The notes: generated from the sequence alone by a model not told the origin. Positions 27,837 through 59,543 are shown, counted from the stretch's first letter. The stretch is DNA of 64,000 nucleotides from a virus (IMGVR_UViG_3300012208_000003:1209-65208), one strand, 5' to 3'. A program made the numbers and translations.

Positions 27837-27909
27837 GCAGGCATGGCGTGTAGAGAATCGGAGTGGTACGCATTGACATGGCCGGCACTGGTTCGGCAGG
27901 GCAGCGCAG
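27837..27909 (+). ncRNA. pentamer (NNNNG) guide-like array A
   Basis: GCAG, G at 27845 to 27900 every 5 nt, GCAGC, GCAG. Confidence 0.85.
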
Positions 27910-27924
27910 GCACGGTGAGTTGAC

Positions 27925-28167
27925 GTGAGCACCATCGAAGAACGCATCAAGACGCTCGTCAGCGACAATCTCGGCGTTGGCGAGGAGGAAGTCACATCCA
28001 ATGCATCGTTCGAGCATGATCTTCACGCGGATTCATTGGATATCGTTGAATTGGTCATGGTAATTGAAGAAGAATTCAAAATCGAAATACCCAACGAGCA
28101 AGCAGAGGAGCTCGTCAACGTTGGGCTCTTAATTGAGTATGTGACCAAGCGCGTTGGGAAGCAGTAA
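27925..28167 (+). CDS. acpP: acyl carrier protein
   Basis: [39 protein letters not shown]. Confidence 0.9.
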
Positions 28168-28207
28168 GTAGTTTGGGCGCGGAGCAGTAAAAGCACGGTA
28201 GGTCATC

Positions 28208-28286
28208 GCAGGCGCGGACAGGCGGGTTTCGGTTTGTGAAGGAGAGGCTAGTCATGTCCCGGCATGAAGGGGGCAAGGCATTGCAG
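28208..28286 (+). ncRNA. pentamer guide-like array B
   Basis: GCAG, 14 units (one hexamer), GCAG. Confidence 0.85.
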
Positions 28287-28300
28287 GCAAGGAGACGTTT

Positions 28301-29806
28301 ATGAATGAAAGTGGTCTATCGAAGAATAAAATCATCGCGGAGCTTTCGAAGTCCGCGCATGGCAGTTTGCAAGAATATGTGTCCGTCGGCAAACAGGCCG
28401 CAACGGAGCACGGCGAATTTTTCGCACATCTAATTGCTTGGGATCGCTTGAAAGGCGCGATTCGCGACAGCAAAATTGCTTTGCCGATCGTGAGTTTACT
28501 GGCCCCAAATTATCCGGCCGAATTTGTGGAGAATTCGCTGGCAGCTCTTTCTCTGCTCAATCCCCGCGAGCAGCTCAAGGCGCTCCGGTTCGTGCTAGAG
28601 ACACGTGTGCCCGGACACATGACTTCAATCACCCATACTCTTGGCATTTCGCTGCTCGAGCGCGAAAAAAATTGGCCAAAATGGGAACGGCAAATGCTCC
28701 AGCACCGTGCCGTGCTCAAGGAATTGTTCAGCCTTTTGCACGTCAAGCCGCGCGATCAGCGCACCAAAGCATGTCTCTGGCGTTGCGATAAGCACGATGG
28801 CAAGCGCATTCCGCTGCCGTATCCGGAAGGTGGGCTGTTTGAAATTGTGGCACGGCTCAAAGACCTGCCACCGACGGAAGCGGCCGGCGTAATCATGAAT
28901 AAAAAAATTCCGTTCCTTGTTGCCATGGGAGCGCTCGGCGAGAAAGCCCGAGAAACGGATCTCGTGTTGGCGCTCATCAAATCAATGACGAGCACGGAAT
29001 TGATCACTAACACGAAGATGCTCGAACGCCTGGGCATCAAGACGAACCCGGCGCTGCGCGGCGCTTTCCAGGAAGCGCTGGAAAAGGCCGGCAAGAGCAC
29101 GGCCAACATTCTCAAGACGACTCGTGCGGCTGAGAATATCGACGATGAAGAATTGAAAGAGAATCTTCGTGGCTTGCAAGAAAAACAAATTGCAAGCCTT
29201 GGCGGCGAAGGCAATTGGGCCGTTTTGGCCGATAAGTCAGGTTCCATGACCAAGGCGATCGAACTTGCCAAACATGTTGCTGCTACTTTGGCAAAATTGG
29301 TCCATGGCAAAGTGTGGTTGATCTTTTTCGACACTGCGCCACAATCCATCGATGTTACGGGCATGGCGCTGGACGTTATCAAAAACGTTACACGATACGT
29401 TCAAGCTAACGGCGGAACATCGATTGGATCCGGTTTATTGCGCCTATTCGAAGCGAAAGAGGAGGTTGACGGCGTTTGCATTATTTCGGACGGCGGCGAA
29501 AATACAGCGCCGACGTTCCCGGATGTCTACAAACGATATTCGGAGATGTTCAGGAAGATGCCGCCAGTTTATCTTTATCAGACGCAAGGCGACTCGCCGG
29601 CATTGATTACGACGATGCAGCAAGCTGGACATGACATGCAGGTATTCGACTTGCGCGGCCAGGAGACCGATTTTTACTCCCTGCCAAATCTTGTTCAGAC
29701 GATGCGGACTCAAAGGTTTTCCCTGTCGGACGAAATTATGGGAACAAAACTTTTGCAGTTGTCGGATGCTTACAAGACGACTGTCAAAAAAACGGCCACG
29801 GCGTAG
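28301..29806 (+). CDS. Ro60/TROVE-like protein with C-terminal vWA domain
   Basis: Helical N-terminal 300 aa (KIPFLVAMGAL, SMTSTELITN..L.RLG); MIDAS DKSGS, GGTS, ISDGGEN. Confidence 0.65.
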   Translation: MNESGLSKNKIIAELSKSAHGSLQEYVSVGKQAATEHGEFFAHLIAWDRLKGAIRDSKIALPIVSLLAPNYPAEFVENSLAALSLLNPREQLKALRFVLETRVPGHMTSITHTLGISLLEREKNWPKWERQMLQHRAVLKELFSLLHVKPRDQRTKACLWRCDKHDGKRIPLPYPEGGLFEIVARLKDLPPTEAAGVIMNKKIPFLVAMGALGEKARETDLVLALIKSMTSTELITNTKMLERLGIKTNPALRGAFQEALEKAGKSTANILKTTRAAENIDDEELKENLRGLQEKQIASLGGEGNWAVLADKSGSMTKAIELAKHVAATLAKLVHGKVWLIFFDTAPQSIDVTGMALDVIKNVTRYVQANGGTSIGSGLLRLFEAKEEVDGVCIISDGGENTAPTFPDVYKRYSEMFRKMPPVYLYQTQGDSPALITTMQQAGHDMQVFDLRGQETDFYSLPNLVQTMRTQRFSLSDEIMGTKLLQLSDAYKTTVKKTATA

Positions 29807-29950
29807 AAATCGGCGTGCCCGTCACGTTCCGAAAGGCTTGACCGGTATCTAGGTTGAGAGTGACGGAGCCGGTAAAAGGGACAAGCACTAACGTTCCTCT
29901 GGCACACGTGGGGACGGCCAATTCACCGGCCGTCCTGCCAGTTAGGCATG

Positions 29951-30103
29951 GCAGGCGCGGAGAGTCTTGACGAGATACGATTTGGAGGGACGTGCAGCGG
30001 TCCGTTCCGTCGAGGCTGGCAGCGGCAGCGCAGGCTTGGCGAGTCACGTTCTGGTAAGTCACGTTGTGGAGAGTAGAGGAAAGACCGGAACGCGGCAAGG
30101 CAG
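29951..30103 (+). ncRNA. tandem pentamer guide-like arrays C1 and C2
   Basis: GCAG (29951), 15 units, GCAG (30030), 13 units, GCAG (30100). Confidence 0.85.
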
Positions 30104-30140
30104 GCATGGAGTTAAATTCTAATGAAAGGAGGACAAGAGC

Positions 30141-30449
30141 ATGCTCAATGCGTTGAAATCTTATAGCCCTCAAAGACTAGATACTGAAGAGTTAATTGAA
30201 CTCGCAGGATTTGGTCGATTGCTTGAGGCAGAATTCACTTTGTTGAGTGTTGAAATTCCCGAATGGATTGGCAATCAATTAAAGGCCATTAGACGGGAAA
30301 TCAAAATGCGTAACGCCGATGCTATCGCGAACAAACTTCGCGCCGCAAAGGCCCGCCTTTCAACGCTCGCAACAGTAGATGAAAAAAGAGCCGCAGTTGC
30401 AGCCGAAATCGCTCAACTTGAAGAACTGGCAAAGGCCGCAAGCGCCTAA
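30141..30449 (+). CDS. helical hypothetical protein
   Basis: AGGAGG RBS, 102 aa. Confidence 0.75.
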   Translation: MLNALKSYSPQRLDTEELIELAGFGRLLEAEFTLLSVEIPEWIGNQLKAIRREIKMRNADAIANKLRAAKARLSTLATVDEKRAAVAAEIAQLEELAKAASA

Positions 30450-33073: not shown

Positions 33074-33727
33074 ATGGATATTAGCGGAAAGTCGGAAGCC
33101 TCAACTAGTTCTACATTGATCGTTGGCGCTGTTGCACGAATCCAAACAATCGCCGAAAATTTCTGGCATGTCATAAACATGCGTAGGCCCGAAGGCTGTG
33201 ATTGTGCCGGCTGCCGGATGCATCGCTTATTGCCGGAATCTTTGCATGCGGATGCGCAGGATCAAATCCGCTGCCTCAATGCATTCGTCGCCTGGGAAGT
33301 GGCTATTGAAAACCTGGTCACGACCGAAGGCAAAAACGATCTGCTGACAAATTATCTGAAAGGCTCGAGTTACACGGCGGCATTCTACGCGGCTCTCGTA
33401 AACAATGCATCGTTTACCGCTTATGCCGCTGGCGACACGGCCGCACAGATCAATGGCACGAATGGCTGGCTTGAAGGCGTGCCCTACTCGAACGCTAATC
33501 GCGTAACCTGGACTGGCGGGACCGCTGCTGCCGGATCGATCGACAATTCCGCTTCCCCGGCCGTTTTCAATATCAATGCCACGCTTACCGTACGCGGGGC
33601 TTTCTTAAGTACCAGCAACGTAAAAAATGGCACAGGCGGGAAGCTCTATGGCGAAGCCGATTTTGCCGCCGCACGATCAGTATTGAGCGGCGACACGTTA
33701 AATTGCACAATAACTTGTACTGTATGA
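33074..33727 (+). CDS. putative virion structural protein
   Basis: AGGAGG RBS; ENLVTTEG, TVRGAFL, RSVLSGDTL. Confidence 0.6.
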   Translation: MDISGKSEASTSSTLIVGAVARIQTIAENFWHVINMRRPEGCDCAGCRMHRLLPESLHADAQDQIRCLNAFVAWEVAIENLVTTEGKNDLLTNYLKGSSYTAAFYAALVNNASFTAYAAGDTAAQINGTNGWLEGVPYSNANRVTWTGGTAAAGSIDNSASPAVFNINATLTVRGAFLSTSNVKNGTGGKLYGEADFAAARSVLSGDTLNCTITCTV

Positions 33728-34374
33728 TAAATGATATAACAGGGAATAGATTCGGTAGGCTTGCCGTTATACGCAGGGCCGGTTCAACTCCATATACTCC
33801 TTCTGGCGGTAGACGTTCATTATGGCTGTGTCGCTGTGATTGCGGTAAAGAAATAACGCGGACAAAAGATGACCTTTCTAGTGGTCATACAGCTTCGTGC
33901 GGCTGTTTCAGGCGCGATGTAATGTTCAACAAAGCCTTGAAACACGGTCACAATTTACCGGGTAAGCGGACTCGAACATATGAGGCTTGGGCGTCCATGT
34001 TGGCGCGTTGCCTGAATCCTAAAAAGGAAGGATTCGCCAATTATGGGGGCAGGGGAATAATTGTTTGCGAGAGATGGCAGGAATCATTCGCGGATTTTCT
34101 TGCCGACATGGGCGAGTGTCCACCCGATTTATTTATCGACAGGGTCGATAACGACAAAGGCTATTTCAAATCCAATTGCCGATGGACAGACCGAACCACG
34201 AACAACCGCAATCAGAGGAAGAGCATCAGGGTGGATGGAGTTCCACTCGCGCAAATTGCAGAAGAGGTCAAAGTAAGCTACAGGCGTCTCAAATATCAAG
34301 CCGTCACAAAAAAGTTACCTCTTGATCTTGCCATAGCGAACGCTAAGCAATTGGAAATCGGAATTAAAGCATGA
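33724..34374 (+). CDS. HNH homing endonuclease
   Basis: DITGNRFGRL, WLCRCDCG, SCGC, YGGRGI.VCERW, IDRVDNDKGY..NCRW..N.RN. Confidence 0.9.
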   Translation: MINDITGNRFGRLAVIRRAGSTPYTPSGGRRSLWLCRCDCGKEITRTKDDLSSGHTASCGCFRRDVMFNKALKHGHNLPGKRTRTYEAWASMLARCLNPKKEGFANYGGRGIIVCERWQESFADFLADMGECPPDLFIDRVDNDKGYFKSNCRWTDRTTNNRNQRKSIRVDGVPLAQIAEEVKVSYRRLKYQAVTKKLPLDLAIANAKQLEIGIKA

Positions 34375-35321: not shown

Positions 35322-37391
35322 TTGAAGATTTTAATCAAAATATTTTGCGGGCCCTTGTTTTTGATCTTGCTCTTCGGCATTGTCACGATCGAGCAATATT
35401 TCATGATGCCGCCTGTGGCTCGAGCTCAAGCAAACGTAGTTTGCGCAGCCAACTTGCCATGCACCATTACCAGTGCTTGGACTTTCACCGGCGCGCAGAT
35501 GTTCACTCAATTAAACGGCTGCCAGTATGTCAATGCCACGCAAACATTTGCGCAAGCTCTTGCCGCAGCAGGTTCAGTAGGTTGTATCGAAGTTACTCCC
35601 GGAACTTATACGGTAAGCGCGAGTGCGCTCATCCCCTATGGCGTCACCCTGCGTTCCACCAGCGGAGGAATTCTATCAATAGCTACGGGAGTCACTTTAA
35701 CTATTGCAGGGAACATCCTAGGCAGCCCTAACGGGCAAATCTTCGCTTACGTTGGGACCGGTGCAACAGTCATTGCGCAAAGCTTGGTTGAAGCTCTATG
35801 GTTTCCAGGCGCTAATCTCGGCGTGCAAATAAATAACGCCGCATTGGCCCTGAACAACGCCAAGGGCGGAGGTAACACCCACGGAGCCGGGAAAATACAT
35901 ATCGTGGGCGGAGCTTATTCCGTTCCACTTGGCGTCATTAATCCGCAGGCGGATGTAATCATTTCTTGCGATGAGAACCAGGCGACGGCCATCAACTTTA
36001 CCGGAGCGTCGGGGATCGCTCTGCTTTTCAACGTTGGCACGGCTGGAGGGACATATTACGAGTGGGGCCAAGGAATCGAAAACTGCCAGCTGTACGGCCC
36101 AGGCTATCCAAGCGGCTCAGGACAAGCAGGAACGGGGATTCAAATAGGCGATTCGACCCATGCAACGATAGGCTTGAAGATGGAGAACAGCTATCTTGCC
36201 GGATTCTCAATAGGCTTAACTTGGGGGAATACCTCCGCTTGGGGAGCGAAAATAGACCACACGGTATTTACGTTGAACACTCAGGACTTTGTATATAACC
36301 TGAATCTAGGCGGCGGCACAGAAAATATAGCACTGGACCACGTAGTTTTCGCTCCAAGCTACAACGCAATAATCGCCAACGACGTGGTGATTGGACCAGG
36401 GAATACCACCACAGATATTTTTTTTAGTAACTGTTCTTTCGACAATGGGGAACTGGTTGTCTCTAACACCTCGGCGGTTGGCTTGACAAAGCCGCATTTC
36501 GAATACAGCACCAATACGACGACACCGTTTGCCGCTATCAGCGGCGGAGCGTTCGTAACTATGTACACTCCGGTTGTGCAATACGATCCGGTCAGCGGAA
36601 CCGTTCCAACATCCGTATTTTCCGTGAATAGTTCGACGCTCGATATCTACTCGCCAAAAATGAATTCCAATGTGGCCATCACGAATTATCTGAACGCTAC
36701 TTCTTCGGCAACCAGGGTATGGGGGATCGAACAATTAAATGGGATCGGAGGCCCAACTTATTCCGGAGGTTGGCAGATCGAATGCGGCACAACTACACAG
36801 ACCTGCAACTATGTTCTGGGCGCAGGCGCATTTAACGTCTCAGCCACAGGCGGCATCAATCTTCAGAACAATACTGCCGTTACGGGTCTGCTTACGGCTA
36901 CGGGAAACACCGCAGCTCTCACCGCCGATTGGACCTGTGGCACCGGCGGTACGGTTTCCTCCTGCGTGGCCGCGACGATCATTGGTTCTGGCGGTGGAGT
37001 GCCTCTTACCTTCACGCTTCCGCTAGTCGCACGGTCCTACACGCTCGAATGCGACGGCGTAGTGGGGCAAGCCACCGCAGTGACCGCCAATAGCTGGAAT
37101 CTGCTAACAGCGACGAATGGCGCGACGAATGTTACCACATCCTACAGCATGAACACGGCAGTAACAGCCATGACTGGCGGGGCGACTACTGATCAGGCGT
37201 CAACAACGACAACTTTCTTAATTGGTCCGACATGGACGCTTGGTGGCACAGCGACCAAGATGCCTTTTCATATCTATGCGAAGATTGAAGGCGCGTCGGC
37301 TTCAGGAACAGTGGTCAGTCTCCAATTAGTTGCTCCAACAGTCGGAGATTTGGTTACCATCTATCGCGGCACATCTTGTAGGATCTTCTAA
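35322..37391 (+). CDS. beta-helix (pectin lyase-like) spike / depolymerase candidate
   Basis: 689 aa, Gly/Thr/Asn-rich; I.V.PGTY and QINNAA..GKIHI..GAY; N-terminal hydrophobic segment. Confidence 0.6.
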   Translation: MKILIKIFCGPLFLILLFGIVTIEQYFMMPPVARAQANVVCAANLPCTITSAWTFTGAQMFTQLNGCQYVNATQTFAQALAAAGSVGCIEVTPGTYTVSASALIPYGVTLRSTSGGILSIATGVTLTIAGNILGSPNGQIFAYVGTGATVIAQSLVEALWFPGANLGVQINNAALALNNAKGGGNTHGAGKIHIVGGAYSVPLGVINPQADVIISCDENQATAINFTGASGIALLFNVGTAGGTYYEWGQGIENCQLYGPGYPSGSGQAGTGIQIGDSTHATIGLKMENSYLAGFSIGLTWGNTSAWGAKIDHTVFTLNTQDFVYNLNLGGGTENIALDHVVFAPSYNAIIANDVVIGPGNTTTDIFFSNCSFDNGELVVSNTSAVGLTKPHFEYSTNTTTPFAAISGGAFVTMYTPVVQYDPVSGTVPTSVFSVNSSTLDIYSPKMNSNVAITNYLNATSSATRVWGIEQLNGIGGPTYSGGWQIECGTTTQTCNYVLGAGAFNVSATGGINLQNNTAVTGLLTATGNTAALTADWTCGTGGTVSSCVAATIIGSGGGVPLTFTLPLVARSYTLECDGVVGQATAVTANSWNLLTATNGATNVTTSYSMNTAVTAMTGGATTDQASTTTTFLIGPTWTLGGTATKMPFHIYAKIEGASASGTVVSLQLVAPTVGDLVTIYRGTSCRIF

Positions 37392-38174: not shown

Positions 38175-38978
38175 GTGCCGGCAGCTTTCCTAAATCAGGC
38201 AAGTACTCGTTGGGAGCATTATTTCACGATGTCGCTCTCGATGGATGCTAGTGCCGACCTACAAGATTCCACGAATTTGACAGTATTCGTCCTCGAGTCG
38301 TTGATTGGTTCAGCTTCGATTGTAGATTCCTGCAGTATGACGATGCCAGTCTCCGGATTGCTTGTTGGCGCAGCCGATACCATTCCTTCCATCGCTCTCG
38401 CGATGCCGGTATCAGCAATGCTTTCTGGAGCTACCGACATCGCAACGTCACTCATCTTGACGATCCCGGTAAGTGCAGGCTTGGATGCCAATGCCGCACT
38501 AAGCGATTCCGCCGGCAATCTTTTTCTTAATTCCATGTCACTGACAGTTTCTGCGGATATTGCAATCATTGCCGTCGACGCGGAATCCGTATCGATCTCA
38601 CTGGATACTACGGCCATTCTGGCCGATTCCACCTCTAGCACAATGGTTGCTTCCGGAATATTTGCCGGGGCGGTCGACATTACACCTTCGAATATCGTCA
38701 GCATGAGCGCATCGGCCGCTATTATCGGCTCCGCTGGATCCACGAGCAGCGGTGGGTTTACTTATGTCGGCGAGGTCAGTTTCAGTGGATTGGTAGCGGA
38801 CCTGACAGTTTCATTCATGATTGGTGCAGCACCGCCAGTATCGCCGCGTTGGCCGGCAAATTACATACAGCCGGATTTTCGTGTTCCATCAGTCAATTCG
38901 CTCGTTGCCGATTATCCAGTAGGCGAAAACATGTTGAAATTGGATTGGCCAATTCCCAAACATGAGGAGCCAAAATAA
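38175..38978 (+). CDS. Ser/Ala-rich repeat protein with C-terminal QPDFR module (start uncertain)
   Basis: About 21-aa imperfect repeats (MPVS...A.D). Confidence 0.55.
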   Translation: MPAAFLNQASTRWEHYFTMSLSMDASADLQDSTNLTVFVLESLIGSASIVDSCSMTMPVSGLLVGAADTIPSIALAMPVSAMLSGATDIATSLILTIPVSAGLDANAALSDSAGNLFLNSMSLTVSADIAIIAVDAESVSISLDTTAILADSTSSTMVASGIFAGAVDITPSNIVSMSASAAIIGSAGSTSSGGFTYVGEVSFSGLVADLTVSFMIGAAPPVSPRWPANYIQPDFRVPSVNSLVADYPVGENMLKLDWPIPKHEEPK

Positions 38979-39014
38979 ACACTCTTAACTAGAAACTTAG
39001 GCTGCAAGAAAGTA

Positions 39015-39043
39015 TTGACAGGGTTCGTTTAATGTGTGAGTCT
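39015..39043 (+). promoter_or_regulatory. promoter directly upstream of array D
   Basis: TTGACA, 17 nt, GAGTCT preceded by TGT. Confidence 0.45.
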
Positions 39044-39049
39044 TTAAGT

Positions 39050-39125
39050 GCCGGGGCAAGGCGCGGCGTGACCAGTCCCGACGAGCATTGGCCGGGTACG
39101 TCCCGAACGTGGCAGGGCAGGAATG
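39050..39125 (+). ncRNA. pentamer guide-like array D
   Basis: G at 39050 to 39105 every 5 nt, hexamer AACGTG, GCAGG, GCAG. Confidence 0.85.
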
Positions 39126-39135
39126 GCACAGTAGA

Positions 39136-39855
39136 ATGTCTTTTAAGTTAAATCCGATGGATATTGACGGCCCAAATCGGCCTGACAATGCCACACAGGC
39201 CGATTTTCGCGTCCCTTTCACCGATCCTGAGGTAGCTGATTATCCGGTTGGCATGAACGTATTAGATTTGAGCTGGCCAATCCCGCGATACAATCAGCCG
39301 AACTAGGAGATTCGCATGGGAAATTACGTTCAGCCGGATTCTGATACGAAAAAAAATTCGCAAATAACGGTTCAGACAGGCATCAATGCGTTGATACCAG
39401 GTCCGGCACACGCCGGCAATCATACGCAAAGCGATTTTCGAAAGCCGACGATCGTGCCAACCCCGGGAACGGCAACGAAAAATCCGATCGCATTGACATG
39501 GCCGCTGCCAGCATACGTTCAACCAAATAATGCGACGAGCGTCACCGGGTTAAAAGGTCCGATGGGAACAAGCAACAATCCTCATTAGGAGAATGAAAAA
39601 ATGCCGAACTATTCTCAACCTAACTCAGGCAATCCAGTCTTGGATTCGCGCGTCGGTGTTATCGCCGTGACTGGCAATGCTTTCGTGAATGGGCCGGTTT
39701 CGCCAGGAAATCACATCCAGCCGAACACTAGCGCTCCTCCTGCTAACCGGCATGGTGCCAATTTTGCCGTGGGCGGTAACCCGATGAATATCGGAACGGT
39801 GACACGGTATGTGCAACCAATTTCCGCCAAGGAATTCCCGTCCGGTAAAATATAA
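39136..39855 (+). CDS. three small Pro/Asn-rich related proteins (39136..39306, 39316..39588, 39601..39855)
   Basis: Shared N.(Y/H).QP, DFR.P, L.WP.P.Y.QP motifs; AGGAG RBS on the last two. Confidence 0.65.
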
Positions 39856-39895: not shown

Positions 39896-39968
39896 GGGCG
39901 CGTAGCTCACTTGGGAGAGCGCGGGCTTTGCATCCCCGAGGCAGTCGGTTCGATTCCGATCGCGTCCA
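39896..39968 (+). tRNA. tRNA-Ala(TGC)
   Basis: GGGCGCG/CGCGTCC acceptor with G3:U70; loop TT-TGC-AT. Confidence 0.85.
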
Positions 39969-39979
39969 CAGATTTATAT

Positions 39980-40053
39980 GGCGTCGTAGGGAAACGGTTT
40001 AACCCGCTTGTTTTGGGTACAAGAGATTGTCGGTTCGAATCCGACCGACGCCA
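39980..40053 (+). tRNA. tRNA-Pro(TGG)
   Basis: GGCGTCG/CGACGCC; CTTGT-TTTGGGT-ACAAG; TTCGAAT T loop. Confidence 0.85.
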
Positions 40054-40090
40054 CTTTTTGTGATCCGCCGCGTGGCCTAGCGTTCAAGGC

Positions 40091-40188
40091 TCTAGGAGTG
40101 GTGGGTAGCGCGTGGTCCAACGTGAGAGCCTTCTCTGGGCTTAGTGGTTGGCTCTCGTTCGGGACGGATAAGCTTAGGCACTCCTAGA
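40091..40188 (+). ncRNA. unidentified rod-shaped RNA within the tRNA cluster
   Basis: TCTAGGAGTG/CACTCCTAGA outer and GAGAGCC/GGCTCTC inner stems. Confidence 0.5.
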
Positions 40189-40202
40189 AAAAAATTTTAC
40201 GG

Positions 40203-40274
40203 CCCGCGTTAGCTCAATGGTAGAGCCCCGGCTTGAAGCACCGGTAATGTTCGGTTCGATTCCGATACGCGGGA
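40203..40274 (+). tRNA. tRNA-Phe(GAA)
   Basis: CCCGCGT/ACGCGGG; loop TT-GAA-GC. Confidence 0.8.
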
Positions 40275-40286
40275 TCAAGAGTTTGT

Positions 40287-40362
40287 GGCCCTGTTACCGT
40301 AACGGATAGCGGTCTTGAGTTCTAATCAAGATGTGCGAGTTCGAATCTCGCCAGGGCCTCCA
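40287..40362 (+). tRNA. tRNA-Arg(TCT)
   Basis: GGCCCTG/CAGGGCC; CTTGA-GTTCTAA-TCAAG; encoded CCA. Confidence 0.85.
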
Positions 40363-40367
40363 AGTTT

Positions 40368-40459
40368 GGAGTCGTGGCCGAGTTGACTTAGGCACCGGGC
40401 TGTAGCCCCGGAGTCCCATCGGGACCTAGACGAAGGTTAGAGCCCTTCCGACTCCACCA
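40368..40459 (+). tRNA. tRNA-Tyr(GTA)
   Basis: GGAGTCG/CGACTCC; CCGGG-CTGTAGC-CCCGG; long variable arm; CCA. Confidence 0.8.
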
Positions 40460-40464
40460 GATTT

Positions 40465-40540
40465 GGGTGCGTAGCTCAGTTGGCAGAGCATTCGATTCTT
40501 AATCGACAGGTCGTGAGTTCAAAACTCACCGCACCCACCA
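40465..40540 (+). tRNA. tRNA-Lys(CTT)
   Basis: GGGTGCG/CGCACCC; loop TT-CTT-AA; CCA. Confidence 0.9.
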
Positions 40541-40545
40541 AGTTT

Positions 40546-40621
40546 GGCTCTGTAGCTCAGCAGGAAGAGCAGCGGGCTCATAATCCGCGCGCCGTTGGTT
40601 CGAATCCAACCAGAGCCACCA
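40546..40621 (+). tRNA. tRNA with CAT anticodon (elongator Met or Ile2)
   Basis: GGCTCTG/CAGAGCC; GCGGG-CTCATAA-TCCGC; CCA. Confidence 0.9.
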
Positions 40622-40637
40622 GGTTGGACAGGTGTTC

Positions 40638-40733
40638 GGGAGGTTAGCCTCAATTGGTAAGGCAGCGGACCTGAAACCCGCCGATGGTCGGCGAACCCGG
40701 CCAATGTGAGTTCGAATCTCACACCTCCCGCCA
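40638..40733 (+). tRNA. tRNA-Ser(TGA)
   Basis: GGGAGGT/ACCTCCC, G73, CCA; loop CC-TGA-AA; long variable arm. Confidence 0.85.
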
Positions 40734-47031: not shown

Positions 47032-47032
47032 A

Positions 47033-47407
47033 ATGTCCGTTTATCTTGAGTGGTACGTCAAGAATGTGGAGCAACAGAAAGACAGAACCGCTTTCCTGGT
47101 TGTCTCCATAAAGAATACCGCCGCCCGATTCACCGTCTATCGCAAGGGCACCGAATGGCATTGCCCTTGCGATACCACAGAGGGCGTCGCCGGCACTACT
47201 GTTTGGATTGAAGGCCCGATCGCAGGCGCTTGCACTCACATTTGCAGAGCGTTTTTTTATTACTGGAACATGCTCAAACATGCTGAGGACATGAAACAAC
47301 AAGTCAAGACCATGGCCGAGGCCTCGAAACAGACTAAAAAGGCCGTGGCCAATCCAAGCACCCCGCTGCTTGAAACCAAAAAAAGGAAGATCACGCTCAA
47401 GGACTAA
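47033..47407 (+). CDS. SWIM-like zinc-finger protein
   Basis: WHCPC...CTHI. Confidence 0.6.
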   Translation: MSVYLEWYVKNVEQQKDRTAFLVVSIKNTAARFTVYRKGTEWHCPCDTTEGVAGTTVWIEGPIAGACTHICRAFFYYWNMLKHAEDMKQQVKTMAEASKQTKKAVANPSTPLLETKKRKITLKD

Positions 47408-47643
47408 TATGCTCTCCTACAAAATGACGAAATTCCGGGGCATCGAAATGCCCAACGAGCCAGTGACGGAACTGATCGTCCACATCCATGCCGGCAAAAC
47501 GGATGTTGTTGAATTCTGGATTCCCGGCTCGCGCTTCCCGCAAACCGCCCTGCTCGACAAGGCGCAATTTGAAAGGATGTGGCCTGGGTCAATCAGCAAT
47601 TCGCAGCGTTAGAACAGCAAGTCCGGGAAATTCATTAAAAAAC

Positions 47644-47673
47644 TTGCCCTATAACTTGTTTTTGTAGTAGAAT
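47644..47673 (+). promoter_or_regulatory. promoter directly upstream of array E
   Basis: TTGCCC, 18 nt, TAGAAT with AT-rich upstream tract. Confidence 0.55.
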
Positions 47674-47685
47674 TCAGTCGGCATG

Positions 47686-47763
47686 GCAGGCTTGGACAGT
47701 CGAGAGTTGGACCGTCCGGTCAAGCACCTGCTTGCAGTGGCGTGGAATGGCTTGGAATCGCAG
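47686..47763 (+). ncRNA. pentamer guide-like array E
   Basis: GCAG, 14 pentamers (12 end in G), GCAG; hairpin 47773-47798 follows. Confidence 0.85.
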
Positions 47764-47827
47764 GCGAAGCTAAAAGGCGCATCTTCTGGTGCGCCTTTCT
47801 AATTTCAAAAACGAAAGGAAGTGCATC

Positions 47828-48265
47828 ATGTCTCATGTAAGTAAATTCGAATTACAGGTCACCGATCTCGACAGTTTAGATGCAGCCTGTAAAGAATTAG
47901 GGCTAGAGCTCGTCCGTAACCAGCAAACGTACAAATGGTATGGCCGTTCCGTTGGCGATTATCCAGTTCCACAAGGCTTCACTGAACAGGACCTGGGAAA
48001 ATGCGAACATGCAGTCAGAATCCCAGACAATCGAACCGCTTACGAAATCGGTGTTGTCAAAAGCCGCACTGGCAAAGGTTATGAATTGCTTTGGGATTTT
48101 TATGCCGGCGGCTACGGCATGGAAGCGAAGGTCGGCAAAGACGGCTGCAAGTTGAAACAGCAATACGAAGTGCAGCATGGCGCTCGCTTTTGGCGTCGCA
48201 AAGGCTACAGGGTCACAACGCAAACTCAACAAGACGGCCACATCCGCGTGAAGTGCAGTCGATAA
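47828..48265 (+). CDS. DUF1257 (Ycf35-like) protein
   Basis: MSHV..I.DL..L..AC..LG, YEIGV, Y.L.WD, LKQ.Y. Confidence 0.7.
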   Translation: MSHVSKFELQVTDLDSLDAACKELGLELVRNQQTYKWYGRSVGDYPVPQGFTEQDLGKCEHAVRIPDNRTAYEIGVVKSRTGKGYELLWDFYAGGYGMEAKVGKDGCKLKQQYEVQHGARFWRRKGYRVTTQTQQDGHIRVKCSR

Positions 48266-48297
48266 GTTAAGAGTTTCAAAAAAAAAGGAGAACAAAA

Positions 48298-48486
48298 ATG
48301 GCTCATGATATCGTCATCGACGTTGCACCGAACGGAGAAGTGAAAATTGAAGTCAAAGGATTCAAAGGCGCGGGCTGCAAGGCGCTCACAAAGGAATTCG
48401 AAGAGAGCCTAGGTAAAAAGATCAGCTCTGTTGACACAAAGGAGGTTTATGAGTCGGAACGAATTCCAGTTCGCAATCGCGCCTGA
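48298..48486 (+). CDS. DUF2997-like protein
   Basis: I...GEVKIEVKGFKG.GC..LT..FEE.LG. Confidence 0.75.
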   Translation: MAHDIVIDVAPNGEVKIEVKGFKGAGCKALTKEFEESLGKKISSVDTKEVYESERIPVRNRA

Positions 48487-49285: not shown

Positions 49286-50386
49286 ATGAAAGCAGCAACA
49301 GCAGCGCAGAAGTCTATTAGACATTTGGCAGCACTGAAAGCGTGGGCCACAATGCGAGCAAGAAAAGGTCAGCCTGCGCCAGTACCAAAGCCAGTAAGAC
49401 CCCGACCGAAGATGGAACCGCACAAGAAGATCGTATTGCCGAAGCAGGAACGGCCGGTATCAGCAAACGAGCTGCTTTTGCGAACCGTCGTTTTGATTTT
49501 GACTTTCAACGGCATCGGCAACCGCCGCAAAGTGCAATCCGATGAATTCCAGGCCGCCTCAACGCCGAACGCAAAGAATGACAATTGGTTCAACACCACC
49601 AAGAAACTCCTCGATGCCGAAGAGCTCGAAAAAATTACTTCGCTGTATGGCGAGCTACACCGGTTTGTCGAGAGCCGGGCGCTGCCATCCATGATCAAAA
49701 AAGGCGTCCATCTTCTTCCACTGGATTTCATCGAGGAAGTGAATGCCCGGCTGAAACAAGGTGAGAAAGATCTCGAGCCGCTGGTCGAGAGCATGGTCAA
49801 GAAACTCAACACCTACATTGCCGAAGCCAAAGCCCGGCTATCGAAAGTAAAAGTGGGCGATCAGGTCAAAAACTTCTTCAACGAGGACGATTACCCGACC
49901 GGGAAAGAATTGCGCGCCGCTTTCAAGCTGACCTGGCGATTCGTCTATGTGGACAGTGCCAAGAATCTTGAAGCGGTTTCCAAGGAGATCTACGAAGAAG
50001 AACGCGCGAAGGCCGAGGCCGCTTGGGCCGAAACACGTGAAACCATCAAGCAACTGCTTCGTACGCAGTTATCGGAATTGGTCGATCATTTGGTTACTCG
50101 ACTAACACCGGACGAAAGCGGCAAGAAGAAGATCATTCGCGATGATTCAACTAACAGGTTGCAGGAATTCTTGACGACTTTCGATTCGCGGAACATTGTC
50201 AATGACGTACAGATGAAAATCCTTGTCGACCAGGCCAAGAATCTGCTCAAGACAGCAGACGCCGACATGCTCCGGACAGATAAGACCGTCCGCGACTACG
50301 TTAGACACGGGTTTGAAACCGTTCAAACTTTACTAAGCGGCATGGTGGTTGACAAGCCTCACCGCTCCATCAAACTCGAAGATTAG
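49286..50386 (+). CDS. DUF3150-like protein
   Basis: K.LLD, G..LLP, F..DDYP, L..LV.HL..RL, L.EF..F..RN. Confidence 0.6.
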   Translation: MKAATAAQKSIRHLAALKAWATMRARKGQPAPVPKPVRPRPKMEPHKKIVLPKQERPVSANELLLRTVVLILTFNGIGNRRKVQSDEFQAASTPNAKNDNWFNTTKKLLDAEELEKITSLYGELHRFVESRALPSMIKKGVHLLPLDFIEEVNARLKQGEKDLEPLVESMVKKLNTYIAEAKARLSKVKVGDQVKNFFNEDDYPTGKELRAAFKLTWRFVYVDSAKNLEAVSKEIYEEERAKAEAAWAETRETIKQLLRTQLSELVDHLVTRLTPDESGKKKIIRDDSTNRLQEFLTTFDSRNIVNDVQMKILVDQAKNLLKTADADMLRTDKTVRDYVRHGFETVQTLLSGMVVDKPHRSIKLED

Positions 50387-50411
50387 GCCCTAAGTTCTAT
50401 GATAGACTATT

Positions 50412-50500
50412 TTACGGCGAGGCATGGCGTGCAACGTTCAGGCCTGATGTGGTGAGGTCGGTCCTGGCACGGCCCGACGATTTGAGGCAGGGCCGGCACG
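50412..50500 (+). ncRNA. pentamer guide-like array F
   Basis: G at 50416 to 50476 every 5 nt; ends GCAGG-GCCG; preceded by extended -10-like TGA-TAGACT (50400-08). Confidence 0.85.
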
Positions 50501-50564: not shown

Positions 50565-50593
50565 TTGCTATTTCATAGACCCTAAGATATAAT
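50565..50593 (+). promoter_or_regulatory. sigma70-type promoter
   Basis: TTGCTA, 17 nt, TATAAT. Confidence 0.75.
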
Positions 50594-50936: not shown

Positions 50937-50942
50937 GGCACG

Positions 50943-51043
50943 GCAGGCGAGGAGAGATGCGTCAAGGGGAGAATTGGATAGCCGAGCAGTGCAGTGGCAA
51001 GGCAGCGCAGGAACGGCTAGGGCGGACGCCGAAAAGTCCGCCC
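50943..51043 (+). ncRNA. pentamer guide-like array G with GCCGAAAA-loop hairpin
   Basis: G at 50946 to 51001 every 5 nt, GCAGC, GCAG; hairpin 51020-51043. Confidence 0.85.
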
Positions 51044-51068: not shown

Positions 51069-51905
51069 ATGGCGACTCGCACATGGAAGGGCTTCATCAG
51101 TTTCGGCCTGTTATCAATTCCAGTCGGCCTTGCAGTAGCTGCACGGGATGAACATATCTCATTGAACATGCTGCATTCAAGTTGTAAGGGCAGAATCAGA
51201 ATGCCGCGAACATGCGAAATCTGCAAGACGGTTGTTCCATCGGAAGAAATCGTCAAAGCCTATCCGACCGGGAATGATGCGTATGTCGTTCTGACAGAAC
51301 AAGAAATCGACGCCATTGAACCGCAATCCGGCAAGACCATAGAAATCAGTCATTGTGTTCGTGCCGCTGAAGTGGATGAAGTTTATCTTGGCGAATCTTT
51401 TTTCATTCTTCCAGAGGCTCCAGGATTGAAAGCATACGGTCTTCTGGTCCGAGCATTGAAGGATTCCGGCCGAGTGGCGCTCGCGCAAATCTGCAAAAGC
51501 AATCGCGAACATATCGTATTGCTTCGGCCGCGCGGCACCGGTCTCGTGGCGCACTTTTTGTTTTACCCAAGCGAAGTCCATAAGGTCGCCGAATTCGATT
51601 CGATCGTATCGCCAGACCTATCAAAAAATGAAATCGCCCTAGCCCTAAAGTTGGTGGAGTCCTTGGCATCTGATTTTTGTCCAGATGAATTTGAGAATGG
51701 CTATGAAATGCGGCTCAGCCAATTGATTGCCAGCAAAATGGATAGTAAAGTCGCGGCTCCGACGCCGGTCAATGTCCCGACAAAAGTCCCGACAATCGAT
51801 ATCGCTAGTGCGCTTATCGCATCGCTCGCGTCTCCGAAGCGCAAGGCCGGTACAGAAGAGGCCGCTCCGAAGGGCAAAGCCAAAAAGGGCAAGAAAGCCG
51901 CCTAA
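51069..51905 (+). CDS. ku: Ku DNA end-binding protein
   Basis: WKGFISFGLLSIPV.L, EEIVKAY..YVVLT..EI, KAY.LL..AL, REH.VLLRP, ASALIASL. Confidence 0.92.
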   Translation: MATRTWKGFISFGLLSIPVGLAVAARDEHISLNMLHSSCKGRIRMPRTCEICKTVVPSEEIVKAYPTGNDAYVVLTEQEIDAIEPQSGKTIEISHCVRAAEVDEVYLGESFFILPEAPGLKAYGLLVRALKDSGRVALAQICKSNREHIVLLRPRGTGLVAHFLFYPSEVHKVAEFDSIVSPDLSKNEIALALKLVESLASDFCPDEFENGYEMRLSQLIASKMDSKVAAPTPVNVPTKVPTIDIASALIASLASPKRKAGTEEAAPKGKAKKGKKAA

Positions 51906-52518: not shown

Positions 52519-52530
52519 AAGGGAGGAACA

Positions 52531-53975: not shown

Positions 53976-53979
53976 GGCC

Positions 53980-56809: not shown

Positions 56810-57309
56810 TGATCAAATGGGAACCGCTCCAGCCAGCAATTGCCGTTTCTCGCATACCGGACCAGGACATTAGAAATCGCGCAGAACAGAAAAATGCGAA
56901 GGAAGCGAAAGTTTTCAGAAACAATCTCTTCACCGTCCACAAACGCGAAAGGCCAATCGTCGATAAAGATGGAGTCGAAGTTGGGACACTAATCCAACTC
57001 TCTATCCACGATCACGCTCGCAGCACACGCCGCGATTGGCGGCACTTCCAAAGAATCAAAAATGAATTGCTTGGCCCGGAGGAAGAAGCCGTTGAACTCT
57101 TTCCAGCCGAATCCAGATTGGTCGACACATCCAATGAATATTTTTTATGGAGCATCAAAGGCTGGAAGTGGCCAGTTGGATTTAACGAACGGTGGGTTTC
57201 AGAAGGCGGCTATGACATCGGTGCCCGGCAGCGCAAATGGGACGACGAAAGCCGGCCCGCCGATTGCCGCGATATCACAAAAAAGGATATCGAGGATTAT
57301 CTGAAATGA
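56809..57309 (+). CDS. hypothetical phage protein
   Basis: DW..FQRIKNEL.G.E.EAVELFP.ESRLVD..N. Confidence 0.65.
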   Translation: MIKWEPLQPAIAVSRIPDQDIRNRAEQKNAKEAKVFRNNLFTVHKRERPIVDKDGVEVGTLIQLSIHDHARSTRRDWRHFQRIKNELLGPEEEAVELFPAESRLVDTSNEYFLWSIKGWKWPVGFNERWVSEGGYDIGARQRKWDDESRPADCRDITKKDIEDYLK

Positions 57310-57319
57310 GTTTGCCGTG

Positions 57320-57429
57320 GCAGGAGAGGAGAGATAAGGCTCGGAGAGAAGAAGGCGAGGCTAATCCGGGCGTGGTCAGCACTGTTACGGCAAGGCAGGA
57401 ACGGCTAGGGCGACGCCGCGAAGTCGCCC
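57320..57429 (+). ncRNA. pentamer guide-like array H with GCCGCGAA-loop hairpin
   Basis: GCAG, 14 units (one hexamer), GCAG; hairpin 57408-57429. Confidence 0.85.
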
Positions 57430-57453
57430 ATCTTTAAAAAGGGAGAAACAGAA

Positions 57454-58557
57454 ATGAAGGCAACGATTTTGTATTACAACGATTTGGCAACAGGCGGAAG
57501 CAGCGACAAGGAATACCGCGTTCAGATTGAGCATTTCAAAAAGGGCCAGTGGAATCCGGCACCACAATTGGAAGGCTACGTCGTGCTATTCCAGTACGGG
57601 CGCCGCGGCGGAACACTCACGGCTGGTCATAAATGCGATCCGGTTCAACTCGCAGAAGCAGAACGCATCTACGACAAATTGGTCCGCGAAAAAACTTCAA
57701 AGGGCTACGTCGGCGCGGAGGCCGGCACCGCGGCTCCGCTCGCGCCAGTCGAACCGCCAGACAATAGTACGCGGACACAGTTCCCGGTCGAGCTGCTCGA
57801 GGAAGTCACGCGGGAAGAAGCAGAACTATTGGTTAAAGATGACCGCTACCTTCTGCAAACCAAACTCGACGGGCATCGCCGTCAAATTGAAAAGACAAAG
57901 ACCGGCGATTTTGTGGGTTATAACAAGAAAGGCGAGCCAGTTGCCCTCTCGGCAGAGTTGGTCAAGAGTCTCAAAGCCATCACCCTTGATTCTTTTTTCC
58001 TTGATGGCGAGATCATCGGCGACAAGTATTACGCCTTCGATATTTTCTTTGCTGATGGCACGAATATCAGAACCATGCCTTATGAAAAGCGCTGGCTGCT
58101 TCTTGATGAGAAGGCTCCGGATTTCGCGGTCGATACCTGGCATTCAACGGCTCAGAAGCAAGCCGCCCTAGCATTGCTTCTGAAACGACGCGCTGAAGGT
58201 ATTTGTTTCAAACGCAAAGATGCACCTTATCGCGCAGGTCGGAACGGTCAACATAAGAAATTCAAATTCCTAAAGAGTGCTAGTTGCAAGGTCATTGGAA
58301 TGGGTCACAAAGGTCACAATTCTGCGACACTCGCACTGCTCGACAAAGGCAAATGGCGCGAAGTTGGTCGTGTCAGTTTGAACGGGAAAGATTCACGAAT
58401 CAAGCTTGGCTCGATTCTTGAAATCACATTTTTATATGTCGGAAGTGGCGGCCGTTTGTATCAACCGCGCGTCAAGGAAATGCGCACAGATATAGCCGAA
58501 TCGGAATGCGTTTTCGCTCAACTCAAGAAGGCTTTCAAAGAAGGGATTGCAGCCTAA
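57454..58557 (+). CDS. WGR-domain ATP-dependent DNA ligase
   Basis: SDKEY..YGRRG..KGY; KLDG.R, LDGE, AFD, EGICFK..Y..GR, KFK, QPR..R.D. Confidence 0.88.
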   Translation: MKATILYYNDLATGGSSDKEYRVQIEHFKKGQWNPAPQLEGYVVLFQYGRRGGTLTAGHKCDPVQLAEAERIYDKLVREKTSKGYVGAEAGTAAPLAPVEPPDNSTRTQFPVELLEEVTREEAELLVKDDRYLLQTKLDGHRRQIEKTKTGDFVGYNKKGEPVALSAELVKSLKAITLDSFFLDGEIIGDKYYAFDIFFADGTNIRTMPYEKRWLLLDEKAPDFAVDTWHSTAQKQAALALLLKRRAEGICFKRKDAPYRAGRNGQHKKFKFLKSASCKVIGMGHKGHNSATLALLDKGKWREVGRVSLNGKDSRIKLGSILEITFLYVGSGGRLYQPRVKEMRTDIAESECVFAQLKKAFKEGIAA

Positions 58558-58567
58558 GTTTGCCGTG

Positions 58568-58671
58568 GCAGGAATGGCCAGTCCTGGCAAGTCGAGGCAA
58601 GTCGGGACCAGAATTGGCCGGGCCAGTTGCGGCAAGGCAGGAACGGCAAGCGGCGGCCGACAACGCCGCTT
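58568..58671 (+). ncRNA. pentamer guide-like array I with GCCGACAA-loop hairpin
   Basis: G at 58571 to 58636 every 5 nt, GCAG; hairpin 58648-58671. Confidence 0.85.
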
Positions 58672-58690
58672 TCTTTATCAGGAGAAACCA

Positions 58691-59408
58691 ATGAAAGCGA
58701 TTCATCTGAAGCCACAACTTGCTGGTGGGAAGATTTTCAGCACGAAAGTGGGCCGGAAGTGGACCTACATCAAAGTGCGCCTGGCAACAAAAACGATCAA
58801 GCGCGCAATCGCAATGGCCGGGAACTAGATGTTAAACCGTGCTCGACAGCCAATCCGTTACTGGATTGCCCGGACATTTTTAGAAGCGCTGTGGTTCATC
58901 TGTGGACTGAACAGAAAGCAATGAAAGGAGAAACTATGGGAGGCGAAGAATTCTTCACTGAAAGAAGGGGGAGCGATTTGGAAGCTACGTTCCGCGAAGC
59001 AGTAGAAAAAGCGCAATACGACCATGGGCACAGCGGCTACACCGGAACCATTGGCGAAAAAGTGAGTGCGATTCTTCGCGCTACCGTCGGTACCTGGGGC
59101 GAGGCGCGCGAATTCGCCCGGAACGATTTGCGCAAGAATGGCGATGACCACGACAAGTGGGGTCCAGCCTGGGCAGTGAAAGTGACCGAACCAGGCAATG
59201 TAGGCTTCCTCTTTTACGGCGTGGCGAGTTCCTGACCATGAAGAAAAAGAAGAAGCGTGATTGGTCAAAGGTCATCGAAGAACTTTGCCTGTGCGGCCAC
59301 AAAAAATCGCAGCATGGTGGAGTAGTTCATCATCTTGAGTGCTTCCAATGCGCTTGCACGCGATTCACTTGGAAAGCATTCCTCAATAAGCAAGGGAAGC
59401 AAATTTAG
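58691..59408 (+). CDS. three small hypothetical genes (58691..58828, 58936..59235, 59238..59408)
   Basis: AGGAG RBSs; GHSGYTGTIGEK..DKWGPA motif in the second. Confidence 0.55.
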
Positions 59409-59428
59409 ACAAAGTTTGCCATGTCAAG

Positions 59429-59543
59429 GCAGGTAGGGCATGGCGCGGCGCGGCTTGGTTGGCCATGGAATGGCTTGGCAGGCAGCGGCGCCGCAGGCAT
59501 GGCAAAGAAGGACGGCAAAGCCGGAGAGCCGCGAATCTCCGGC
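59429..59543 (+). ncRNA. pentamer guide-like array J with GCCGCGAA-loop hairpin
   Basis: G at 59432 to 59487 every 5 nt, GCGCC, GCAG; hairpin 59520-59543. Confidence 0.85.

Follow-up and report, generated by a model that had tools for sequence, protein, structure and literature searches.

Candidate VIPR-type guide RNA minigenes dispersed along a soil phage genome, each beside a locus that it may target in rival phages

The phage contig and its relatives

The window analysed here, a stretch of 64,000 bases, comprises bases 1209-65208 of the virus record IMGVR_UViG_3300012208_000003 (65,208 bases; contig G000 below), and its intergenic gaps hold short arrays of five-base units (pentamers) with G at every fifth base. 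We propose that these arrays are probably solo guide minigenes of the type known from the recently described phage system VIPR, each linked to the locus that it targets in rival phages. G000 is classed as linear by IMG/VR and has a CheckV completeness of 43%, the full genome of this soil phage being about 150 kb, and the eight public runs listed for it are soil metagenome DNA, with no RNA run among them. Contigs from four of these runs represent the same phage and add nothing on the arrays; contigs in public soil runs reach 147 kb, and one of 133 kb encodes a protein identical to the DUF1257 protein of G000. Its genes lie nearly all on the + strand and include those for tail, lysis and recombination proteins, Ku, an ATP-dependent ligase and a clamp loader; two ParB-like proteins, several homing-endonuclease genes and nine tRNAs are encoded as well.

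Four relatives were available for comparison. The closest, G001 (stretch L028), was retrieved by an IMG/VR protein search and has 91,829 bases (CheckV completeness 60%); collinearity with window positions 31055-64000, at 73-91% nucleotide identity, spans its first 34.5 kb in reverse complement. G001 extends 57 kb past the end of the G000 contig, and about 25 kb of the genome would be unsampled if the CheckV estimates are right. G002 (178,858 bases) and G003 (94,628 bases), both rated 100% complete, carry the AAA ATPase at 67% and 51% amino-acid identity, respectively, and the 39-kb G004 (L065) carries a VWA-domain protein at 58% identity. Eight arrays were found in G001 and one cluster of three units in G002, while there were none convincing in G003 and none in G004. 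A metagenome scan for relatives with Ku returned only one, at 30% identity; an AAA ATPase scan of genome contigs returned none, and BLAST of 6 kb against a phage collection gave no match.

Number, composition and ends of the arrays

The window contains 15 intergenic arrays of 10-20 pentamers each (15 units at 12 loci), and one extra unit, Z0, precedes it on the contig. All 16 units lie between convincing gene calls and are overlapped only by weak open reading frame (ORF) calls of 43-51 amino acids. Uninterrupted period-5 runs of at least nine G occur 12 times on the + strand and three times on the - strand, compared with one and no period-5 runs for A and T and with 3, 0, 3 and 0 runs for G at periods 3, 4, 6 and 7. 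In 231 pentamers, G makes up 95% of position 5 and 53% of position 1, C makes up 46% of position 2 (pyrimidines 66%), and positions 3-4 are near uniform; the consensus is thus a relaxed G-G-Y-N-N in which, as the initial annotation of this DNA had stated, only the first G is nearly invariant, and NNNNG variants are known from published work.

Each array opens with a GGCAYGGCAGG-like (GGCAGG) handle and closes with a GGCAAGGCAGGMAYGG tail. The motif GCAGGMAYGG occurs 15 times against 0.83 expected, a count reached in none of 100 shuffles, and 12 of the 15 lie at array ends, which bears out the GCAG bracket described in the initial annotation. The ten loci named there (A-J) are all present, with coordinates accurate to within a few bases, but N1, M1a, M1b and M2 had been missed. 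Promoter-like hexamers stand directly 5' of D, E, F, M1 and M2, and a hairpin follows the tail at E through I; a simple scanner recovers the E promoter, the G and I hairpins and a weak stem after F. The motif CCCTAAG/CTTAGGG recurs near or between the promoter hexamers (39015-39045, 50380-50411, 50565-50593, 1188-1215 on the - strand, and 36680-36712 of reverse-complemented G001) and may be a phage-specific promoter element. The units are listed below in window coordinates, with mismatches allowed in the period-5 G runs; N1, Z0 and the 5' half of H are the weakest, degenerate members.

Z0, in the 1208 contig bases before the window: one extra unit
M1a 1118-1187 and M1b 1043-1117, - strand: tandem guide units, each ending in GCAGGCACGG, with promoter-like TTGAAA...TATAAT just 5' of them on the same strand
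N1, 15135-15184, + strand: ten pentamers in the gap before a HerA/terminase-like gene; the weakest member, with no informative match
A, 27836-27900 (to 27915 with the tail GCAGCGCAGGCACGG), + strand: 13 pentamers between PspA-like and acyl carrier protein genes
B, 28207-28271 (to 28293 with the tail-like GGCAAGGCATTGCAGGCAAGG), + strand: 13 pentamers just before a VWA-domain gene
C1 29950-30024 and C2 30024-30088 (whole 29945-30109), + strand: head to tail, a small handle-guide-delimiter-guide-tail array with handle GGCATGGCAGG, delimiter GGCAGCGGCAGCGCAGG and tail GGCAAGGCAGGCATGG
D, 39046-39125 (minigene 39015-39126), + strand: own TTGACA-type promoter-like sequence; tail GGCAGGGCAGGAATGG
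E, unit 47685-47754 (complete minigene 47644-47800), + strand: 13 guide pentamers at 47690-47754; promoter TTGCCC-18-TAGAAT (47644-47673), handle GGCATGGCAGG, tail-like CGCAGGCGAAG, terminator-like hairpin
F, 50412-50496 (minigene to 50540), + strand: 17 pentamers, then a terminator hairpin and T run
G, 50942-51021 (minigene 50937-51043), + strand: handle, guide, tail GGCAGCGCAGGAACGG and hairpin (51020-51043), just before the Ku gene
H, 57310-57409 (to 57432), + strand: degenerate 5' part, tail GGCAAGGCAGGAACGG and hairpin, just before the DNA ligase gene
I, 58567-58646 (to 58671), + strand: 13 guide pentamers, tail GGCAAGGCAGGAACGG, hairpin 58648-58671
J, 59414-59507, + strand: two overlapping pentamer registers, ending in GCAGGCATGG
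M2, 62539-62608 (minigene 62528-62640), - strand: promoter TTGCAC...TAGAAT, 14 pentamers, tail GCACCGCAGGCATGG

The reading rule and its wobble register

The initial annotation had read positions 3-4 of each pentamer as the first two bases of codons and had reported matches of this kind in neighbouring genes. We scanned the guides against the whole 65-kb genome under 16 combinations of dinucleotide position (1-2, 2-3, 3-4 or 4-5) and skip (0-3 bases), and scored the arrays whose genome-wide best match lay no more than 700 bp away. Seven of 16 arrays (A, B, C1, F, H, J2 and M1b) stood this close to their best match when positions 3-4 were read with a one-base skip; with a chance of 2.25% per array, the binomial probability of seven or more is 2.8e-8. 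The other 15 combinations gave 0-0.81 arrays. G001, analysed independently, gave four of eight arrays under the same rule and 0-0.67 under the others. In six of the seven proximal matches in G000, and in at least three of four in G001, the skip falls on codon position 3 of the ORF that covers the site. The proposed likeness to VIPR, with its skipped wobble base, was thus supported, positions 3-4 with a skip of one being alone in giving a signal.

The self-matches themselves are partial, covering 60-76% of the read bases and up to seven consecutive dinucleotides. Recounted dinucleotide identities came close to those first reported (A 9/13, B 7/13, C1 8/15, C2 7/13, E 8/14 at the homologous site, F 11/17). 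In a test against 200 shuffles over the whole genome, only F (26/34 bases and 11/17 dinucleotides, reached by 0/200) and A clearly exceeded the shuffles, the 19/26 bases of A being reached by a fraction of 0.02 and its 9/13 dinucleotides by none; M1b was borderline, as was J2 by dinucleotides only. The significance of the matches in neighbouring genes thus lies in their non-random place and register, and the claim that the guides match those genes held for location and register but not, F and A apart, for the scores. By eye, the F alignment showed no pattern of G:U wobble or of extra scaffold-base pairing that would account for the mismatches. The self-matches are as follows.

M1b, 931-974, - strand: 21/30 bases, the first six dinucleotides consecutive; in the + strand gene 730-1023, skipped base at codon position 3
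A, 27329-27366, - strand: 19/26 bases, 9/13 dinucleotides; PspA-like gene, skip at wobble
B, 28352-28389, + strand: 18/26; codons 18-30 of the VWA-domain gene, skip at wobble
C1, 30225-30268, + strand: 19/30; codons 29-43 of the gene 30141-30449, in frame, skip at wobble
C2, 30351-30388, + strand: 17/26; the same gene, 30141-30449, in frame, skip at wobble
F, 50072-50121, + strand: 26/34, seven dinucleotides consecutive; gene 49286-50386, skip at wobble
H, 57484-57542, + strand: 24/40, six dinucleotides consecutive; codons 11-30 of the ligase gene, skip at wobble
J2, 59308-59354, + strand: 21/32; about 80 bp 5' of the J insertion, the G001 site matching 23/32

Targets in the genes of rival phages

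Three guides match the genes of relatives well and their own genome less well. Guide E matches the DUF2997 gene of G001 at 25/28 bases (25/26 without the handle pentamer) and that of G002 at 24/28, scores reached by none of 300 shuffles (shuffle maxima 21 and 22). At the homologous site of its own DUF2997 allele (48343-48383, - strand) only 16/28 bases match, and for this reason the own allele would be spared. The targets lie about 550 bp 3' of the E locus on the antisense strand, with the skipped bases at wobble positions (checked by hand in G001 against the gene start); 8 of the 12 skipped bases differ between the two target alleles, and the guide matches both all the same. A search of IMG/VR with an 18-base part of guide E found exactly three contigs, namely G001, G002 and one unrelated AT-rich contig, the last being about the chance expectation for 18 specified bases. 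Window positions 45472-48486 form a module of an AAA ATPase, two small ORFs, DUF1257 and DUF2997. Between G000 and G001 protein identity is 94% for the AAA ATPase, 38% for DUF1257 and roughly 45%, by eye, for DUF2997, which marks the module as a hypervariable cassette, the target of guide E.

Guide M2 matches a small G001 gene (93-110 amino acids, with a good ribosome-binding site) at 23/28 bases (0/300 shuffles), against a best self-match of 18. In G001 this gene occupies exactly the position of the M2 minigene in G000, and no homologue of it was found in the G000 contig; the skipped bases again fall on codon wobble positions, as worked out by hand from the ORF coordinates. Guide Q1 of G001 matches the G002 allele at 22/26 bases (0/300 shuffles) and its own allele at 18/26, with codon position 3 skipped. 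Q1 lies just 5' of a homologue of adenylosuccinate synthetase (PurA-like; L028:8076-9200, - strand; Pfam E = 4e-43). Phage homologues of this enzyme can make 2-aminoadenine DNA. Over all guides and non-self genomes, five pairs reach an identity of at least 0.80 under positions 3-4 with a one-base skip (maximum 0.89), compared with 0-2 under the 15 other rules. The expectation that the guides hit rival alleles and spare their own held for E, M2 and Q1 but was not supported for F, H, D, G and I, which are no better on G001; J2 is marginal.

Guide turnover between relatives

At corresponding loci of G000 and G001 the guides E/E1, G/G1 and I/I1 are unrelated, despite 75-91% identity of the genes on either side. 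Both phages have nearly the same handle at the G locus and share some 60 almost unchanged bases of tail, hairpin and ribosome-binding site there, while the guide in between differs in sequence and by 10 bases in length. Handle, tail and hairpin have likewise been kept at the E locus, as has the promoter region. D is the exception, with seven of ten guide dinucleotides common to both. The collinear part of G001 lacks F, H, J and M2: J sits within an insertion of about 116 bp between conserved flanks, and F is lacking in G001 next to a duplicated promoter-like segment. The M2 locus of G001 (L028:18330-18900, - strand) retains a tail-like GGCAGGGCAGGCGCGG and promoter-like sequence with no guide pentamers, and looks like an 'empty' minigene site beside the very gene that the G000 guide M2 matches.

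A link to Vipr proteins through the tail

The exact 16-base tail GGCAAGGCAGGAACGG occurs in 32 IMG/VR stretches, of which two belong to G001, eight carry long arrays and 22 have no arrays, most of these last being probably chance matches. The eight array-bearing stretches represent seven viral contigs (L055 and L064 are near-identical), and their long tandem NNNGG arrays are delimited by the same motif; those at L055 2865-3435 and L064 2166-2738 are very long, with up to 75 units in one register. In five of the seven contigs a conserved protein of about 210 amino acids adjoins the arrays, and its profile matches the Vipr of phage SUSP1 (E = 2.5e-13) and the PDB chain 'SUSP1 Vipr protein' (E = 2.2e-8). 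As the same tail delimits arrays beside Vipr genes, the scattered units of G000 have their scaffold in common with a bona fide VIPR subtype. Relatives of this protein occur on contigs of soil metagenome-assembled genomes.

The DUF1257 protein was considered as a hidden effector, its gene following minigene E directly, in the position that vipr holds in SUSP1, and was dropped. Its structural model (predicted local distance difference test score 91, from a 47-sequence alignment) had no Foldseek match in the PDB at E <= 0.001, and in a wide VIA-align search the highest Z was 5.1, KA1-like domains scored Z 3.8-4.5, and the best 50 matches listed included no RAMP.

Genes around the minigenes

Positions 27131-29806 encode in series a PspA/IM30-like protein, an acyl carrier protein and a 501-amino-acid VWA-domain protein, and minigenes A, B and C1/C2 occupy the gaps between and after these genes. 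Just 3' of minigene D and its small ORFs is a cluster of eight tRNA genes (39896-40730), the ninth tRNA lying at 23839-23910. The Ku homologue (51069-51905) and a WGR-domain ATP-dependent DNA ligase (57454-58557) form an end-joining pair, and minigenes G and H stand directly 5' of the Ku and ligase genes, respectively. G001 encodes a small protein with an Acb2/Tad1 hairpin domain (L028:4658-4867, + strand), which suggests a sponge for cyclic-nucleotide defence signals.

Around minigene D, four adjacent ORFs of unassigned function (38859-39635, + strand) repeat the peptide motif N-Y-x-Q-P-D-F-R-x-P, and the motif-coding sites at 38859, 39187, 39418 and 39607 each agree with guide D or D1 in 15-16 of 20 bases. 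The D guides may serve self-regulation or may be aimed at a gene family.

Proposed solo guides aimed at rival alleles

Taken together, these results make it rather probable, in our judgement, that the arrays form solo guide minigenes of VIPR type, kept next to the locus that each would target in rivals. By this reading each minigene would yield a short RNA with a GGCAGG-type 5' handle, 10-14 relaxed G-G-Y-N-N pentamers and a GGCAAGGCAGGMAYGG tail, often with a hairpin. If the RNA is bound as in published VIPR, one protomer of a Vipr-type filament would grip each pentamer, and the two N positions would pair with DNA, passing over every third target base, here the codon wobble. The intended targets would be competing relatives' versions of the neighbouring locus, either a divergent allele or an alternative gene cassette, and the own copy, retaining only a homologue-level residual similarity (about 60-76% of read bases), would be spared; the partial self-matches would then simply reflect the homology of the spared allele to the real targets. 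Because the guide is kept beside the immune allele, recombinants could not turn it on themselves. The effector would be a Vipr of the same-tail family, which either another element in the cell provides in trans or an unsampled stretch of the genome encodes. Its binding would silence or damage the rival, with silencing presumably proceeding by the published mechanism.

A number of results weigh against this proposal. Among the eight G000 guides that could be compared on G001, only E (25 against 16) and M2 (23 against 18) are clearly better there; J2 is marginally so (23 against 21 of 32, with 5/300 shuffles reaching 23), D and G score equally on both genomes, and F (26 against 24 of 34), H (24 against 22) and I (19 against 17) are better on self, F scoring 26/34 on G003 as on self. 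Guides B, C1 and C2 match their sites in G004 no better than those in G000. The near-perfect matches anticipated in relatives were found for E, M2 and the G001 guide Q1, but exact-pattern scans of IMG/VR returned no matches for I (24 bases), F (22 bases) or A (22 bases), and the three guides of the single G002 array cluster have no match in G000-G003. The G001 guide D1 matches its own downstream gene at 19/22 bases (0/300 shuffles), above the published 80% target threshold, which in terms of sequence looks like self-targeting. Between 46000 and 64000, promoter- and terminator-like sites are no more numerous overall than in shuffles.

The effector, too, tells against the proposal. The initial annotation had proposed a search of the rest of the genome for a RAMP/RRM protein with a Gly-rich loop, and no RAMP or Vipr protein was found in any genome that was searched: profile, motif and six-frame searches found no Vipr in G000 or G001, hhalign of Vipr against their 445 ORFs gave probabilities all below 3%, and a profile search of G002, G003 and G004 (the first two rated complete) found nothing. 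No homologue of the vap-like gene of the same-tail loci was found in G000-G003, the search covering one of the six described vap families. With the contig 43% and its relative 60% complete, a vipr gene could still lie elsewhere in the genome.

Alternative explanations

A more speculative extension, which we regard as possible but hold only tentatively, is that the minigenes are RNA-guided 'allele drive' elements, guide and adjacent immune allele forming a selfish cassette. In a mixed infection the guide would arm a Vipr-type effector that the phage does not itself encode but hires from the host or another element, the rival locus would be disabled or cut, and recombination with the carrier genome would replace it, so that guide and linked allele spread together; we give this sequence of events the same low weight. 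The anatomy of the loci fits a homing-like drive. Window positions 6164-6841 (GIY-YIG/NUMOD3), 25071-25397 (HNH) and 33703-34374 (HNH) hold three genes of homing-endonuclease type, and the genome therefore also has protein-based selfish elements. Free-standing homing endonuclease genes of T4-like phages are small intergenic insertions whose presence varies between close relatives; their target lies in the adjacent locus of element-free genomes, and the carrier's own site is protected by sequence differences. The insertion polymorphism at F, J and M2 and the combination of adjacency and self-resistance at E and M2 resemble this pattern. G001, which is without F, H and J, carries no clearly better-matching sites for those guides. 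The minigenes have no linked nuclease, and their specificity would reside in an RNA together with an effector of other origin.

Self-regulation, in which the guides tune or time the phage's own neighbouring genes by partial complementarity and the matches in relatives are by-products of homology, appears unlikely. It would account well for best self-matches that adjoin the array in 7/16 cases in G000 and 4/8 in G001, for sites near the 5' end of the downstream gene (codons 18-30 for B, 11-30 for H and 29-43 for C1), for the 19/22 match of D1 to its own gene and the partial conservation of D between relatives, and for F matching self (26/34) better than G001 (24/34). It does not account for guide E, whose own allele scores less (16/28) than shuffled guides do at best on average (18.3-18.8), in contrast to 24-25/28 for two foreign alleles, or for M2, whose target gene is absent from the G000 contig. 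Unrelated guides at E/E1, G/G1 and I/I1 between flanks that are 75-91% identical sit badly with a conserved regulatory site, four of eight minigenes are absent in G001, and the main text of the published VIPR work reports that no self-target of at least 80% was found (10.64898/2026.04.26.720920).

Still less probable, in our view, is that the units are decoys, guide-like RNAs that soak up or misdirect a hostile Vipr of the host or a rival, in the manner of phage 'RNA anti-CRISPRs' and satellite solo vrRNAs, and whose guide content is secondary. In favour of this, searches of the lineage found no vipr gene, as many as 15 units occur within 64 kb, Vipr-linked arrays have the same handle and tail, and published solo vrRNAs can redirect a helper's Vipr (10.64898/2026.10.15.759431). 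The guides, however, have specific content: against neighbouring genes they obey the 2+1 rule in wobble register, and on genes of relatives they reach 82-89% identity. A pure decoy would have no need for the linkage of each guide to a particular locus, and whereas RNA decoys are solitary repeat units with no meaningful guide, the guides here carry specific, register-correct matches.

That the arrays are not guide RNAs at all but DNA-level repeats in intergenic gaps (protein-binding sites, recombination hot spots or slippage relics) seems very improbable: the support so far comes from DNA sequence, Rfam holds no family matching the arrays, and N1, Z0 and the 5' half of H are degenerate, but such repeats would explain neither the strand-specific layout of promoter, handle, variable part, tail and hairpin, nor the position and skip specificity, nor the same tail beside Vipr genes, and pentanucleotide slippage is excluded because the units are not copies of one another.

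Comparison with known systems

The published VIPR RNAs (vrRNAs) are described as 9-16 GGY/NN units followed by a tail, each unit bound by one protomer of Vipr, a minimal RAMP protein with a G-loop, to form a filament; the NN dinucleotides do the pairing with DNA and leave out one target base in each unit, and the skips fall on wobble positions (10.64898/2026.04.26.720920). They are expressed as small RNAs of about 100 nt and co-purify with Vipr. Targets lie in competing phages and satellites and are called at a threshold of 80% match, and variants with NNNGG, YNNNG or NNNNG units and 'staggered' arrays are mentioned (10.64898/2026.04.26.720920). The arrays of G000 resemble VIPR type II, as described for Escherichia phage SUSP1 and a Pseudomonas fulva prophage, in their tandem five-base units with two variable guide bases, in the one base per unit skipped at wobble, in the use of either DNA strand as target, in targets within competing mobile elements and in a conserved 3' part after the repeats. 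They differ from it in that the first G alone is near-invariant (95%, against 53% for the second G and 66% for the pyrimidine), in having a short GGCAAGGCAGGMAYGG motif, with or without a hairpin, where SUSP1 has a pseudoknot tail, and in being single or paired over at least 62 kb, with no vipr or vap found, unlike the type II clusters beside a vipr-vap operon (10.64898/2026.04.26.720920; 10.64898/2026.04.26.720927). Six different vap families have been described for VIPR.

The nearest published counterparts are the solo or orphan vrRNAs of satellites and vipr-less phages, whose self-match scores lie below their scores on rivals (10.64898/2026.10.15.759431). Like those of the VIPR-null SUSP1-like phages and F5 satellites, the minigenes of G000 are guide genes with no vipr found in the same genome, with self-matches below rival matches and a wobble alignment, and the idea of using another element's Vipr is common to both. 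The solo vrRNA phages, as described, have one or two guides at the site of a deleted vipr-vap pair and target vipr, vrRNAs or satellites; here about 15 minigenes occupy many loci, each apparently directed against the form that its neighbouring locus takes in rivals. The targets found are ordinary phage genes (DUF2997, a small ORF and the adenylosuccinate-synthetase homologue), and no vipr remnant was found. The long arrays of L036, L038, L044, L047, L051 and L052 have the same GGCAAGGCAGGAACGG 16-mer and handle-guide-delimiter layout as G000 but consist of many tandem canonical NNNGG units beside the protein of about 210 amino acids, whereas the units of G000 are single, relaxed and without the protein; these long arrays are probably the 'staggered arrays' of the published work (10.64898/2026.04.26.720920, legend to fig. 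S18). In the parts of the three VIPR preprints consulted we found no account of many dispersed guides, each linked to its target locus; the supplements may hold cases.

The minigenes also bear comparison with the mini-CRISPR arrays of viruses. Such arrays target closely related viruses and rely on host Cas proteins. The two are alike in having guides on the virus, the effector in trans and related viruses as targets, but mini-CRISPR arrays have contiguous spacers in one array and no linkage of guide to target locus.

Significance

The first descriptions of VIPR date only from 2026 and show a compact locus in which a few guides accompany a single protein gene and an accessory gene. In the phage fragment described here about 15 guides lie outside any such locus and without the protein gene, each apparently beside the locus that it recognises in rivals. 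Guide E, which matches two target alleles despite their different wobble bases, illustrates the value of the wobble skip. If our interpretation is correct, gapped-code guides would serve allele-by-allele competition between close relatives, beyond the contest with satellites and prophages, and the linkage of guide and immune allele would follow the logic of toxin-antidote and homing systems, here with RNA providing the aim. 'Guide-only' genomes may then be common and invisible to protein-first searches. Should the minigenes in addition act as allele drives, a phage genome of this kind would carry, mosaic-like, a dozen or more RNA-guided drive loci that are independent of one another.

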